A stretch of DNA of 21,855 bases from a virus (IMGVR_UViG_3300031555_005217:135047-156901); one strand, 5' to 3'; numbered from the stretch's first letter, positions 3,174 to 9,694 are shown. The notes: generated by a model from the letters alone, not told the origin. A program made the numbers and translations.

Positions 3174-3247
3174 GTTTATATCCTCCTTATGTACATTTAT
3201 AATTATAATTTAAATTAACATTTAATTCTAACCCATATAAAAAGAAA

Positions 3248-3267
3248 AAAGGCTATTATCAGCCTTT
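3248..3267 (-). terminator. Rho-independent terminator
   Basis: AAAGGCT/AGCCTTT inverted repeat plus T-run. Confidence 0.7.
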
Positions 3268-3300
3268 ATATAAATTTGTAAAATTGTTTAAGAACTTTTA

Positions 3301-3588
3301 TTAAAGTCCCAAACAATTCTTAATATCATCTTCAGCATCAAAATATCTCATTGGATAGCCGACTCCTATTACTAATCCTTTACTGCCATCCTCATACTCA
3401 ACTAATTCTACAAATTCTAAACCACATAATTTTTCTTCATATTTTTCCTTAACTGCTAACCAACCTAAATGTTTTCCTAATCCTTCATTTTCACAACTTT
3501 CTGCTTTCACCTCATCTTCTTTTAAACCAACATCATCTGCTATCTCTTTGTGACTTTTTAAATTATAATACTTCTTCCAGTTTAACAT
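3301..3588 (-). CDS. hypothetical protein, 95 aa
   Basis: ATG with purine-rich RBS, own promoter, downstream terminator. Confidence 0.8.
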   Translation of the reverse strand: MLNWKKYYNLKSHKEIADDVGLKEDEVKAESCENEGLGKHLGWLAVKEKYEEKLCGLEFVELVEYEDGSKGLVIGVGYPMRYFDAEDDIKNCLGL

Positions 3589-3610
3589 AATTTTATTTCC
3601 TCTATCTTTC

Positions 3611-3655
3611 TTTACGATTATATTATATAATAAAATGACATATTTTTCAAAAGCA
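3611..3655 (-). promoter_or_regulatory. class I early promoter
   Basis: TGC-TT-TTGAAA-N17-TATAAT-N5-CGTAAA. Confidence 0.8.
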
Positions 3656-3666
3656 TATAAAAAGAA

Positions 3667-3690
3667 AACGATCTTTTAATTAAGATCGTT
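3667..3690 (-). terminator. Rho-independent terminator closing the tRNA/ncRNA unit
   Basis: AACGATCTT/AAGATCGTT 9-bp inverted repeat followed by TTCTTTTT on the minus strand. Confidence 0.75.
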
Positions 3691-3850
3691 TATAAAAAGG
3701 AGGTATGCAAACTTTTATTTTGAAAGGAGGATAATAAGGTAAGACCTAGCATAGCAGAGTCGGCCACACAATCTTTTTCCAAGCATTTAGCTCCACATAG
3801 AAGTATCTACTCACACTATCTATGATACCTAATTTCTAAACCTTATTTTA
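3667..3850 (-). ncRNA. candidate sRNA: long irregular hairpin plus two anti-Shine-Dalgarno tracts
   Basis: No ORF. Closing stem 3733-3740/3840-3847 (8 bp perfect) with further inner helices. ACCUCCUUU (3696-3704) and CCUCCUUU (3723-3730) lie just before the terminator. Confidence 0.45.
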
Positions 3851-3872
3851 TATTATAACTTACATTAAACTT

Positions 3873-3949
3873 TGGTGGACCCGGAGGGGCTCGAACCCGC
3901 GACCCGCACATTATGAGTGTGCCGCTCTAACCAACTGAGCTACGGGTCC
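3873..3949 (-). tRNA. tRNA with CAT anticodon, probably tRNA-Ile2 (lysidine type) rather than Met
   Basis: 77-nt cloverleaf. GGACCCG/CGGGTCC acceptor stem, GCACA-CTCATAA-TGTGC anticodon arm, GGTTCGA T-loop, encoded CCA. The GGACC acceptor resembles Bacillus/Mycoplasma tRNA-Ile2. Confidence 0.93.
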
Positions 3950-4196
3950 AAGAAAGAAAACGGGTCGCGCTGTGAATGCTACCGTCATTACATCCTCTGA
4001 AGTTTTTCTCGCTCCTTAACAGCTTTCAGGAGTTAGGATCACGCGTCTTACTTCCAACCTTTTTGAGGAACTGATCTCACTGTTCACCTTGGCGCCCCTC
4101 ACAAGCTAGCTTCGGCAATTGCCTGTCAAACTAATTTCTTTTACTTGGCGCAAGTGTCTCCGGGTTTATAAGAGTTTTCCTTCTCGAGTTAACTTA
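3950..4196 (-). ncRNA. candidate ~235-245 nt structured RNA between tRNA-Lys and tRNA-CAT, unclassified
   Basis: About 45% GC by hand count (111/247) in an otherwise very AT-rich context, with no credible ORF. 11-bp closing helix 4174-4184 with 3951-3961, plus several nested stems. Confidence 0.6.
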
Positions 4197-4272
4197 TGGT
4201 GAGATCGGAGAGATTCGAACTCTCGACCCCATGATTAAAAGTCATGTGCTCTACCATCTGAGCTACGATCTC
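4197..4272 (-). tRNA. tRNA-Lys(TTT)
   Basis: 76 nt. GAGATCG/CGATCTC acceptor stem, CATGA-CTTTTAA-TCATG anticodon arm, GTTCGAA T-loop, encoded CCA. Confidence 0.96.
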
Positions 4273-4303
4273 AAGTAATTATTAACTATGTATTTATATA
4301 CAA

Positions 4304-4465
4304 TTAATAATTATTATAATCTACTTTTTTAGCTCTTTTTCTATTATAAACTTTTTTAGATTGAACAATATTCATTCTAGTTTTCTTTTGAACTTCTAAA
4401 TGTAATTTGTTTGGAATGTTAACTGGCTTTTGTTCCTTGCCATCAATTTTACCTTTAATTTGCAT
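4304..4465 (-). CDS. small basic protein, 53 aa, ArfA-like C-terminal motif (tentative)
   Basis: Missing from the ORF track. RBS AAGGAG 9 nt upstream, class I promoter at 4482-4526. MQIKGKIDGKEQKPVNIPNKLHLEVQKKTRMNIVQSKKVYNRKRAKKVDYNNY*. Confidence 0.75.
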   Translation of the reverse strand: MQIKGKIDGKEQKPVNIPNKLHLEVQKKTRMNIVQSKKVYNRKRAKKVDYNNY

Positions 4466-4481
4466 TTGAATCATCTCCTTA

Positions 4482-4526
4482 TTACATTAATAATTATATA
4501 ATATTTTAACAAGATATTCAAATCCA
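4482..4526 (-). promoter_or_regulatory. class I early promoter
   Basis: TGG-AT-TTGAAT-N17-TATAAT-N6-TGTAAT. Confidence 0.75.
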
Positions 4527-6344: not shown

Positions 6345-6507
6345 ACTCTTATTCTCCTATTTATCTTTACACATATATTTTATAATATTTTAAATAAACT
6401 TTCAATCGCATATAAAAATTATTAATAGTTCTTAAAAGCTTATTTAAAGCGGCTATATAACAGTTTAGATTTAATAGAATATAAATTATAAATAAGAAAT
6501 AAAAAAA

Positions 6508-7740: not shown

Positions 7741-7796
7741 TTGAAACGTGTGTTTAGGAGGTAACTAATATTTCAAGAAGTATTTTTCTACTTCAA
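7698..7796 (-). ncRNA. candidate ~100-nt sRNA with anti-SD tract
   Basis: Lies between an ATTGTATA promoter-like motif (7802-7809) and the terminator. 5' hairpin GAAGTA/TACTTC (7777-7794), ACCUCCU at 7756-7762, no ORF. Confidence 0.45.
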
Positions 7797-7808
7797 TATA
7801 ATATACAA

Positions 7809-8009
7809 TTAATTTTTATTATTTTCTAATCAGTTCATATAATAGTTTCTAATTTTATTTAATTCTTCTTTTTTCTCTCTTAATTCTGTTTTAGATAAAG
7901 AAGAGGTATTATTCTTTATCAGTCCATCTACCTTATCTATTTCATCTATTAAGTGTAATGAAAAATTATCTACTCCTAATAGCTTACCTAATTCCATATA
8001 TGTACTCAT
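7809..8009 (-). CDS. hypothetical protein, 66 aa if the TGA at 7830-7832 is read through (59 aa otherwise)
   Basis: Missing from the ORF track. RBS AAAGGAG, ATG 8009: MSTYMELGKLLGVDNF...RNYYMN[W]LENNKN*. Confidence 0.7.
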
Positions 8010-8027
8010 AACTATTTCTCCTTTATT

Positions 8028-8261
8028 TTATTTGATACTAATTACATAACAACTAATAATTTGTTTTGCTAAACGATAATCATCTCTATAATTAACTGAT
8101 TTAATTTCACGATTTAATAATCTTTCAGGTAATGAAGTTGGGGATAAATCCTCATGATCAATGTATACTATACCTTGAACCCAACCACCATCTTCAACTA
8201 CCGCTAATGTACCTGCATCAGTTTCATGTAATAAGAAATCCTTTAAAGTTTGTTTTCTCAT
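8028..8261 (-). CDS. hypothetical protein, 77 aa (start revised to MRKQTL)
   Basis: GGAGG RBS precedes the ATG at 8261. The track start at 8306 lies inside the upstream gene. Confidence 0.78.
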   Translation of the reverse strand: MRKQTLKDFLLHETDAGTLAVVEDGGWVQGIVYIDHEDLSPTSLPERLLNREIKSVNYRDDYRLAKQIISCYVISIK

Positions 8262-8278
8262 AATATAATTTCCTCCAA

Positions 8279-8608
8279 TTAATCTAAATATGGTTGGTAA
8301 TCCCATCTACCGAAAGTGGCATACTCAGGATAGTCTGTTTCTCTTCCTCGTGTTCCCCAACATCCAAATTTAGGTTTCCAAAATAATTGTTTAATTCTAC
8401 CATTCTTATCTTCTACAATATCATCAGCTAATGTATCGTAATATCTTGGACCATTAAATATCAAATTACATTCTTGAATAAATATACAATTTGTATTTAC
8501 TCCTATAACAGTGTAAGGATGACGAACCATATCAATCATACCATTACCTGTTCTTTGAGATAAGTAAAGTCTATCTCCTACCTTTGGATAACTCTTTTCA
8601 TTTCCCAT
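8279..8608 (-). CDS. phage hypothetical protein, 109 aa
   Basis: RBS AGGTAGGT, class I promoter at 8634-8678, TAA stop. Confidence 0.85.
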   Translation of the reverse strand: MGNEKSYPKVGDRLYLSQRTGNGMIDMVRHPYTVIGVNTNCIFIQECNLIFNGPRYYDTLADDIVEDKNGRIKQLFWKPKFGCWGTRGRETDYPEYATFGRWDYQPYLD

Positions 8609-8633
8609 ATTATACTACCTACCTTTTTAATTA

Positions 8634-8678
8634 TTTACAAATTAATTATAGAATATATTATATTTAAATTCAAAACCA
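8634..8678 (-). promoter_or_regulatory. class I early promoter
   Basis: TGG-TT-TTGAAT-N17-TATAAT-N5-TGTAAA. Confidence 0.8.
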
Positions 8679-8683
8679 TCAAG

Positions 8684-9001
8684 TTAGTTTTCTATATAAC
8701 AATAGTCAATAACCCATTCTGGAAGATAACGTTCTAATCTAACACAAGGATCTGTATCGTCTAGACTACTAGCAAATATAGAACTTCCTATCATATCTGG
8801 AAGAAAATACTTATTATCACTTCTAAAAGAATAAGATCTTGATTCGAGAGGATATTCTTTACCCCATGATTCAACATCTTTGAATACTACAACGCACTTT
8901 AAAGGATTTGAATCTCCATATTGATTCTTAATATTATTTTGAGAGTTATGCTCACTGATTTTCTCAGTAAGCTCTCTCCATGTTAATTTGTTAATTTGCA
9001 T
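8684..9001 (-). CDS. phage hypothetical protein, 105 aa
   Basis: Starts 5 nt after the upstream stop. The YPLESRSY...SDNKYF...SIF..SLD.TD.CVRL pattern is recalled from Bacillota phage proteins. Confidence 0.85.
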   Translation of the reverse strand: MQINKLTWRELTEKISEHNSQNNIKNQYGDSNPLKCVVVFKDVESWGKEYPLESRSYSFRSDNKYFLPDMIGSSIFASSLDDTDPCVRLERYLPEWVIDYCYIEN

Positions 9002-9006
9002 AATTA

Positions 9007-9210
9007 TTACTCCTGTATTAAATGATTAATTAATGAAGAAGGTGTAAATCTAATAGTGTAAATATCTCCGCTATGGAAATCTTTTCTTACTAGATTATTA
9101 AATGTAATGTGAAGAACAGGTTCGAAATGTTCTCTTTCTTCGATTTGTGTAATTGTGCCTTTGCCGAATTTGCTGTGATTAATTTGTTGATTTAATGTAA
9201 ATGTTTGCAT
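9007..9210 (-). CDS. 67-aa Tudor-like protein resembling the PcrA/UvrD C-terminal domain
   Basis: RBS AAAGGAG. Motif QINHSKFGKGTITQI...LHITF. Confidence 0.75.
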   Translation of the reverse strand: MQTFTLNQQINHSKFGKGTITQIEEREHFEPVLHITFNNLVRKDFHSGDIYTIRFTPSSLINHLIQE

Positions 9211-9234
9211 ATTATATATTCTCCTTTACCTTTA

Positions 9235-9279
9235 TTTACACCTTAATTATATAATAAATAAATATAACTTTCAAAACCA
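9235..9279 (-). promoter_or_regulatory. class I early promoter
   Basis: TGG-TT-TTGAAA-N17-TATAAT-N5-TGTAAA. Confidence 0.85.
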
Positions 9280-9291
9280 AATAAAAAGAAA

Positions 9292-9314
9292 AGTCTAGAA
9301 ATAATTTCTAGACT
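9292..9314 (-). terminator. Rho-independent terminator
   Basis: AGTCTAGAAAT/ATTTCTAGACT inverted repeat overlapping the TAG stop of 9308..9694. Confidence 0.65.
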
Positions 9315-9694
9315 AAAAAGAAATACTTTATAGGATCAAAATCAGGTGCAGCATATTCTCCAACATCTTCTGTTAAAATATCTACTATTGAAACATTAGT
9401 TTCTCCAGCACCTAATAGAATCTTTCCTGAATTAAACTTAACCATGAAATGTCCATCTTTGATTCCATACCCAATAGTAGATCCATTTTCATATCCTAAA
9501 TCTTCTAACTTACTACAAGCTATATATTCTATATCTTCAAATAAATTTAATATAACTTGTAATGCTTCTGATTGAGAAAACTTTCCTGTTAATTTTTTTA
9601 ATTGATTCCCATTTAAACTATCTACAATCTCTTTAGATAAAATATCAAAATCAGAAGAAGTTATGAATTGAAGTTTCTTAATTTGTAGTTTCAT
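9308..9694 (-). CDS. hypothetical protein, 128 aa
   Basis: RBS GGGAGGG, TAG stop inside the terminator. Confidence 0.8.
   Translation of the reverse strand: MKLQIKKLQFITSSDFDILSKEIVDSLNGNQLKKLTGKFSQSEALQVILNLFEDIEYIACSKLEDLGYENGSTIGYGIKDGHFMVKFNSGKILLGAGETNVSIVDILTEDVGEYAAPDFDPIKYFFLV

Follow-up and report, generated by a model that had tools for sequence, protein, structure and literature searches.

Two separately conserved, unclassified RNA modules lie head to tail between two tRNA genes of a phage

Results

Genes and features around the spacer

The stretch of DNA analyzed here (the window, 21,855 nucleotides) covers the final 21.9 kb of an IMG/VR phage record of 156.9 kb. The record is 88% complete, has a GC content of 26%, and carries 26 tRNA genes, as identified by ARAGORN. 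At its center of interest is a spacer between a tRNA-Lys and a tRNA-Met gene, and every gene around this spacer lies on the minus strand (Table 1). Read 5' to 3', the spacer is part of a transcription unit that encodes only RNA and consists of a promoter-like ATTGTATA box, tRNA-Lys, two modules that we call A and B, tRNA-Met, a noncoding trailer, and a terminator. The 3' end of tRNA-Lys is the 5' boundary of the spacer RNA, whose positions are counted below from that end. The trailer contains CCUCC tracts (3667-3850, minus strand) ahead of the terminator.

Upstream of this unit lies an ORF for a Lys/Arg-rich protein of 56 amino acids. It has five homologues (59-92% identity), all from related phage contigs, and belongs to no Pfam or PHROG family. 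The ORF neighbors module A or B in two of the relatives described below (L010 and L017) and not in a third (L018); it usually adjoins one of the modules or shares the same tRNA region. Downstream of the terminator, five small ORFs are followed, 2.7 kb away, by a gene that encodes a protein with DUF2828 and vWA domains.

Table 1. Features of the tRNA operon and its surroundings (positions in the window)
Feature	Position	Strand	Basis or remark
DUF2828 + vWA protein, 528 aa (N-terminal 421 residues in window)	1-1263	minus	Pfam; phrog_850 ("RNA-binding protein")
Intrinsic terminator	3666-3691	minus	Terminator scan; closes the RNA-only transcription unit
Noncoding trailer after tRNA-Met	3666-3872	minus	Ends in the intrinsic terminator; ~180 nt without it
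tRNA-Met(CAT)	3873-3949	minus	ARAGORN and Rfam
Spacer, 247 nt	3950-4196	minus	Between tRNA-Lys(UUU) and tRNA-Met(CAT)
Closing helix, 3' strand GUUUUCUUUCUU	3950-3961	minus	Linker from module B to tRNA-Met
Module B, ~110 nt, predicted three-way junction	3953-4062	minus	Homologues L018:1617-1729 and L017:1922-2027
Module A, ~120 nt, irregular hairpin	4065-4188	minus	Homologue L010:296-423, nhmmer E = 4e-22
Closing helix, 5' strand GAGAAGGAAAAC	4174-4185	minus	Overlaps P1 of module A
tRNA-Lys(UUU), encoded CCA	4197-4272	minus	ARAGORN; Rfam, 75.6 bits
Promoter-like box ATTGTATA	4297-4304	minus	Upstream of tRNA-Lys; read from the sequence
56-aa basic ORF, conserved, Lys/Arg-rich	4304-4474	minus	Upstream of tRNA-Lys
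Sigma-70-like promoter	4493-4521	minus	Promoter scan; upstream of the 56-aa basic ORF

The spacer is GC rich and noncoding and matches no Rfam family

A previous reading of this DNA, made from the sequence alone (the sequence-only reading), had proposed that the spacer is a GC-rich, noncoding, unclassified RNA, and this description held up. The GC content is 45% over the whole spacer and 42 to 47% in 100-nt windows, compared to a background of 17 to 30%. The modules thus lie about 20 points above the genome, and the spacer resembles the tRNAs in GC content. It is present in a single copy in the phage record. Coding potential was checked under genetic codes 11 and 4. No ORF of at least 50 aa was found in the spacer under code 11, and the sole longer frame under code 4 starts with TTG, is 63 aa long, and runs into tRNA-Met, leaving no plausible ORF. 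A small peptide gene was also considered and rejected, because 1-nt indels between the homologues would shift or break its frames.

The spacer was next compared to the 4227 models of Rfam 15, which include GOLLD, ROOL, Y RNA, tmRNA, RNase P, SRP, and 6S RNA as well as group I introns, riboswitches, and self-cleaving ribozymes. There was no match within 3950-4196, either at gathering scores or at E values up to 10 with lax filters, and the homologous modules of L010, L017, and L018 were likewise without a match. The claim that the RNA fits no named family therefore survived this cmscan-type comparison, in which no family matched even at an E value of 10. The likeness to GOLLD and ROOL drawn in the same reading stands as far as the location beside tRNAs is concerned, but neither Rfam model matches the spacer. 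A group I intron or self-cleaving ribozyme was rejected, as neither gave an Rfam signal at an E value of 10. A degenerate piece of a tRNA or tmRNA was rejected as well, since ARAGORN and Rfam detect only the flanking tRNAs and the spacer contains no T-arm motif.

The predicted folding energy of the spacer (-58.1 kcal/mol; z = +0.40) was not better than that of shuffled sequences, and the same was true of module A alone and module B alone. A search of the phage record for antisense targets found none beyond chance, returning only AT-rich chance matches and one 14-mer (0.3 expected by chance).

The spacer consists of two modules that occur separately in related phages

Several searches for relatives of the spacer were negative. 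A blastn search of 50,697 phage records gave no match; pattern scans of IMG/VR returned no RNA relative and at most unrelated coding sequence (L012-L016); a pattern scan of 185,579 prokaryote genomes returned one chance match in a GC-rich coding region; and IMG/VR searches anchored on the neighboring proteins found no close relatives. Related loci were reached through protein homologues, those of the DUF2828 protein (66-72% identity; L008-L011) and those of the 56-aa ORF (L017-L019 and L036). When these were searched with the spacer as an nhmmer query, RNA positions 8-151 matched L010:295-449 (E = 4e-22), with close conservation stopping near position 127, whereas positions 128-241 matched L018 at ~1615-1729 (E = 1e-24 to 9e-24) and positions 133-238 matched L017:1922-2027 (E = 4e-21 to 3e-20). 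Module A thus occurs alone in L010, module B occurs alone in L017 and L018, and none of the relatives has both. The tandem is known only from this phage and near-identical variants, and the known distribution of the modules comprises five metagenomic contigs. The spacer is therefore not one RNA but two separately conserved, unrelated RNA modules placed head to tail. This result contradicts the proposal of a single multi-stem RNA family, as the 5' half (A) and the 3' half (B) have homologues of their own that occur singly.

Both modules are conserved at least as well as the neighboring ORF. They are 87 to 92% identical to their relatives, versus 84 to 90% for this ORF, and the flanking intergenic DNA cannot be aligned. 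Gene order in the tRNA islands of these phages is highly fluid. Neither module was present in 16 metagenome loci anchored on a nucleotidyltransferase gene (see below) or in L037 and L038, and models of module B (R1) and module A (R2), run over 180 kb of related loci and the whole phage record, recovered only their training sequences. The L008 spacer after tRNA-Lys was considered as a decayed module A and rejected (one 22-nt match, 15 bits, E = 0.86). Modules A and B represent a new sequence family outside all described families, with a narrow distribution and thin structural support.

Module A folds into an irregular hairpin. Judged from the consensus fold and the fold of A only, P1 is formed by AGGAA/UUCCU and UCUUAU/GUGAGA; P2 is a long helix (CACUUGCGCC/GGCGCCAAGGUG); and two pairs of P3 differ by compensatory changes, one from A-U to G-C and the other from U-A to A-U. 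The hairpin at the tip is variable, and its pairing is kept in a shifted register (GGC..GCC here and GUCA..UGAC in L010). The alignment with L010 includes identical blocks of 39 and 25 nt, and model R2 scores 154.9 bits on this phage and 161.2 bits on L010. Among the 21 pairs, compared over two sequences, there are two compensatory changes and one one-sided change. Between this phage and its near-identical variant L036, module A is unchanged (0 of 119 positions; 100% identity), compared to 8 changes in 174 positions of the adjacent ORF and 3 changes in tRNA-Lys; two of the latter (L036:470-545 versus 4197-4272) compensate each other by replacing U-A with C-G in the acceptor stem, and the third affects a base of the D-loop. 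The end of module A (GAUCA-N2-3-UCCUC) loosely resembles the 3' end of 16S rRNA. The short palindromes GGCAAUUGCC and AAGCUAGCUU, which the sequence-only reading had listed among the structural features, lack conservation in L010. This speaks against a role as DNA sites for proteins, and their candidacy as DNA operators was dropped on this ground.

Module B is predicted to form a three-way junction. In the consensus fold, P1 is GGUUG/CGACC, P2 is GAAGU/ACUUC around the hairpin CUCCU/AGGAG, and P3 is GGAUGU/GCAUYC. Its alignment contains long invariant blocks, and model R1 scores ~132 bits in all three copies. The 24 pairs, compared over three sequences, include one compensatory and two one-sided changes, and 98.6% of cells are paired, versus 33 to 49% in slid controls. 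The hairpin proposed at 4012-4032 is retained in the relatives, where it carries one compensatory pair (C-G to A-U). However, 151 of 500 shuffles reach the observed covariation score of module B, with two to three distinct sequences available per module. Thus, a comparison of homologues provided three compensatory pairs, but the covariation is not significant.

Substitutions in both modules are located at the tips of hairpins and in a small number of unpaired segments, and changes at paired sites (three compensatory and three one-sided for the two modules together) keep the pairing. At all four paired positions that differ between copies, the weaker pair is found in this phage, which could reflect relaxed constraint.

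Helices that join the two modules

The ends of the spacer can pair with each other. RNA positions 12-23 (4185-4174) and 236-247 (3961-3950) form 12 consecutive pairs in both the minimum free energy (MFE) and the centroid fold, and an end-to-end run of 12 pairs was matched by only 3 of 2000 shuffles. The GAGAAGGAAAAC strand is invariant in L010, where no complementary strand is nearby, and the GUUUUCUUUCUU strand is not conserved in L017 or L018. The proposal that the spacer ends pair was thus correct in that the helix exists and is rare in shuffled sequences, but its partner strands are missing from the relatives. The two nested helices proposed alongside it (4098-4106 with 3969-3976 and 4065-4069 with 3993-3997) join parts that are found apart in the relatives and, because they cross the module boundary, cannot be ancestral. 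Since the halves occur apart, neither the terminal helix nor the cross-module helices are conserved.

A nucleotidyltransferase gene follows the modules in relatives

A box of the same type as the one before tRNA-Lys (ATTGTATAAT or ATTGTATATT) precedes the module in L010, L017, and L018, and in all three the module sits between this box and the ribosome-binding site (RBS) of a gene for a nucleotidyltransferase of 129 to 130 aa. The enzyme belongs to the cytidylyl/adenylyltransferase family (PF01467, phrog_7878), and its gene is followed by tRNA genes in L010 and L017. L010 and L017 share 97% identity in this enzyme, and yet the same slot is occupied by module A in L010 and by module B in L017. 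It follows that A and B either replace each other as cassettes at a single site or are the two parts of an ancestral tandem that have survived. The nucleotidyltransferase gene was not found in this phage's record (157 kb, 88% complete), and thus no cis target stands behind the modules here. More distant relatives also have the gene among tRNAs and other unassigned GC-rich noncoding stretches. In L020 (positions 1000-1130), a nucleotidyltransferase gene of 79% identity has upstream of it a different GC-rich stretch with GGUUGG and CAGCGCGCAC, a hairpin that resembles a terminator, and a TTGACT/TGTATAAT promoter of its own. Model R1 does not match this stretch.

A predicted Ro60-like protein and a tandem array behind its gene

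The full gene for the DUF2828 and vWA protein (L002:9724-11310) lies on the same strand as the tRNA operon. An AlphaFold model of the protein (pLDDT, 79.6) was compared to the PDB, and the top 13 fold matches were all Ro60/TROVE proteins, aligned over the full length (E = 2e-7 to 1e-4) and including Thermus phage Ro60 and Deinococcus radiodurans Rsr. A sequence-profile search of the PDB with the same protein returned no match to solved structures. On the basis of the model, we predict that the protein is Ro60/TROVE-like, a fold for which a partner RNA is expected. Homologous genes are found in or beside the tRNA islands of 711 phage records, together with RtcB and RNA ligases.

Directly behind this gene, at L002:8990-9700 on the minus strand (genome ~133,990-134,700; 350 to 1060 nt before the start of the window), there are six tandem units of 115 to 128 nt, each made up of a TATAAT-like box with (C/A)CAUACAGCAA after it. 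Of the 10 genome-wide matches to the CAUACAGCAA-type motif, 6 fall in this array, and the relatives L008-L011 keep one to three copies in the gap behind their Ro-like genes. In the last unit (L002:~8990-9060), a T-arm (CUGGUUCGAAUCCAG) is followed by a stem-loop and then by a hairpin resembling a D-arm, which is the permuted order of YrlA. The sole Rfam match on the array was a subthreshold one to Dictyostelium class I RNA, through CCUUACAGCAA. These tRNA-mimic units are better candidates than modules A and B for partners of the Ro60-like protein.

Discussion

Here, we describe a phage tRNA operon that carries two conserved modules of noncoding RNA, each of which is found on its own in other phages. 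The reading that we rank first, although we put it slightly below even, is that these are two new small RNAs that are released from the tRNA operon by tRNA processing and act in trans. Host enzymes would cut the primary transcript, with 3' trimming after the encoded CCA of tRNA-Lys on one side and RNase P cleavage at the 5' end of tRNA-Met creating the 3' end of the spacer RNA on the other. The freed product would be an RNA of ~247 nt whose ends are clamped by the 12-bp helix, with A and B as independent domains that would then act in trans as stable small RNAs, carried as cargo of the tRNA operon. Because the spacer shares one transcription unit with both tRNAs, it is plausible that its ends arise from tRNA processing. 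The analysis establishes that the spacer is composite, conserved, and noncoding and how the operon is laid out; we infer the processing, stability, and trans action of the spacer RNA. This reading comes first because the operon encodes only RNA, the spacer resembles tRNAs in GC content, its ends can pair in a closing helix, and module A is under constraint in a lineage where no gene stands behind it. It is plausible that the processed product in this phage is a single molecule in which the closing helix clamps both modules, as a lineage-specific arrangement. In the relatives, each module stands alone at the start of a transcript that continues with the nucleotidyltransferase gene and then tRNAs. 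Their position directly before the RBS in three of three relatives is that of a classic cis regulator and counts against action in trans.

This position is the starting point of the main alternative, which we consider possible but rather unlikely, namely, that A and B are cis-acting 5' leaders (riboswitch-like elements or anti-Shine-Dalgarno switches) that control translation of the nucleotidyltransferase, and that the tandem in this phage was orphaned when the nucleotidyltransferase gene was lost or moved, or was reused. In all three relatives (L010, L017, and L018), the module is flanked by the promoter box and the RBS and lies 25 to 40 nt from the start codon, and two different modules in one slot fit a functional replacement. 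The 3' strands of P1 (UCCUC in A and ACC in B) are anti-Shine-Dalgarno-like. When the RBS is included, P1 gives way in the MFE fold of L010 to a pairing between the invariant CUCUUAUAA of A and UUAUAAAGAG, which covers the Shine-Dalgarno sequence, and in the MFE fold of L018 ACUUCA of B pairs with UGAGGU; no such pairing is seen in the MFE fold of L017. The weaker pair in this phage at all four variable paired positions also fits an orphaned leader. Nevertheless, no ORF follows A-B here, only tRNA-Met and the terminator, and module A is still unchanged between this phage and L036. Relatives whose nucleotidyltransferases are 56 to 82% identical to that of L010 lack both modules, and the short alternative pairings occur in folds that do not outperform shuffled sequences (z = +0.46, +0.34, and -1.30). 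Neither a ligand nor an expression platform can be named, and control in cis leaves a tandem without a gene unexplained. A combination of action in cis and in trans is also conceivable. A and B may be sensor RNAs that can stand in for each other. As riboswitch-like aptamers that recognize a metabolite or a protein of the phage or host, they would gate the nucleotidyltransferase in some phages and would have moved into the tRNA operon in this one, where the freed tandem would act in trans as a sensor or sponge. We regard this combination, aptamer function included, as doubtful. If true, it would show that aptamer cassettes are exchanged in nature between a use in cis and a use in trans.

The remaining explanations appear less probable still. 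One holds that a multi-domain RNA of ~240 nt is the functional, ancestral unit, from which the forms with only A or only B were derived by reduction. The MFE fold includes the 12-bp closing helix, which is rare in shuffles; the closing helix, the A rod, and the B junction make a tidy three-armed fold; and descent from an A-B ancestor through two losses is roughly as parsimonious as an exchange of cassettes. Even so, we consider this improbable: A and B each persist alone with conserved sequences, the 5' strand of the closing helix is invariant without its partner while the 3' strand is not conserved, the cross-module helices lack support, and neither pattern scans of IMG/VR nor searches with R1 and R2 found a second lineage that bears the tandem. 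At the other extreme, the modules could be something other than functional RNAs, either DNA-level elements, such as a recombination cassette, or decaying remnants of a former tRNA or other genes that are shuffled among tRNA islands. The highly fluid gene order of these islands, the narrow distribution of the modules, and the weak thermodynamic and covariation signals would all be in keeping with this. Invariant blocks, changes at paired sites that keep the pairs, and apical hairpins that are shifted yet maintained are not what it predicts, however, and the modules match or exceed the adjacent ORF in conservation, lie 20 points above the genome in GC content, and bear no similarity to tRNAs or tmRNA, so that we give this explanation slightly less credence again. 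Least probable in our estimate is that A, B, or both are partners that tether the Ro60-like protein or control access to it in the way of the Y RNAs of Ro60. Ro60/TROVE structures match the protein model over its full length, both modules are ~110 nt long and closed by pairing of their ends, and homologous protein genes lie in or beside the tRNA islands of 711 phages. The criteria for YrlA Y RNAs (PMC4201824) are a conserved Ro-binding motif, GNCGAAN0-1G, near the 5' end and a Ro60 orthologue encoded no more than 4 kb away on the strand of the RNA, and the gene found here lies on the same strand within that distance. The authors of a study of Listeria phage CKA15 also proposed Y RNAs for unannotated transcripts upstream of a Ro-like gene (PMC12282133). 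In the spacer, however, the motif occurs just once, as GCCGAAG at 4116 in the variable tip of A, where L010 has ACCGUAAC, and module B lacks it. There is no T-arm or D-arm in A or B and no GGUUCRANYC in the spacer, and module A of L010 (296-423) is 7.4 kb from the Ro-like gene (7777-9369). Neither the Ro-like gene of Listeria phage A511 nor that of Enterococcus phage VRE9_4 has a match to model R1 or R2 nearby, and the CAUACAGCAA array directly behind the Ro-like gene offers a better candidate.

In general kind, the modules are tRNA-island cargo RNAs. The tRNA cluster of phage T4 encodes small stable RNAs (species 1 and 2, or rnaD and rnaC) of ~100 to 140 nt that are not tRNAs, are cotranscribed with tRNAs and freed by tRNA-processing enzymes, and have no known role. 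By analogy, these may be the closest historical parallel to the modules: like species 1 and 2, A and B are encoded between tRNA genes in one ORF-free transcription unit, but the host and phage lineage differ, and A and B are fused here while each serves as a gene leader in relatives. A precedent comes from Listeria phage CKA15, where three unannotated regions next to the tRNAs are highly transcribed and lie upstream of the Ro-like gene (PMC12282133), which is a 36% identical homologue of the gene for the Ro60-like (DUF2828) protein of this phage. The spacer shares with these regions a place in a tRNA island, on the same strand and a few kilobases upstream of such a gene. The CKA15 RNAs are backed by expression data, whereas modules A and B are predicted from sequence, and since R1 and R2 do not match the equivalent region of the sister phage A511, the CKA15 RNAs are not homologous to them. 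Y RNAs (YrlA and YrlB; PMC4201824) resemble the modules in being ~100 nt long, paired at their ends, and, as far as the modules of this phage are concerned, near a Ro60-type gene on the same strand; unlike YrlA, A and B lack the conserved Ro-binding motif, T arm, and D arm, and the YrlA-like element of this phage stands behind the Ro-like gene. GOLLD and ROOL are structured phage RNAs next to tRNA islands, sometimes directly beside tRNA-Met (PMC12286853), but they are three to five times larger than the modules and have ornate conserved folds. Finally, as in translational riboswitches, a conserved element of ~110 nt fills the gap between promoter and RBS in three relatives, and the 3' strand of its closing helix could alternatively pair with the Shine-Dalgarno region; unlike riboswitches, the modules match no known class, and the window holds no gene for them to regulate.

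Phage tRNA islands keep yielding RNAs that cannot be assigned, as in T4, GOLLD, ROOL, and CKA15, and this locus adds two modules that are defined in sequence. Because they occur singly as leaders in some phages and fused between tRNAs in another, they provide a built-in comparison of cis and trans arrangements. The phage in question has a full RNA repair kit, a Ro60-like protein, and a recoded stop codon, a setting that bears on roles in RNA quality control or in the takeover of translation.

The tRNA regions of this phage and its relatives contain further RNA features. L008 encodes a tmRNA (3233-3625; Rfam, 105 bits; ARAGORN tag ANLNKIETVILDTRRAVLA) as well as a Ro-like protein of 72% identity, and no tmRNA was found in the phage record by ARAGORN or in its scanned stretches by Rfam. 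Two tRNA-like genes on the minus strand (L039:4109-4179 and 6410-6481) are matched by the Rfam tRNA model at 49.1 and 32.9 bits and are absent from the ARAGORN list. The main tRNA island (L039:7560-9160; genome 99,559-101,159) includes 1.6 kb without an ORF of >50 aa and with three GC-rich islands, which are probably further unassigned RNAs. An 83-nt piece of this region (genome 99,735-99,817) recurs at 302-383 in L037 and L038, within a 540-nt noncoding stretch upstream of tRNA-Asp and a nucleotidyltransferase gene.
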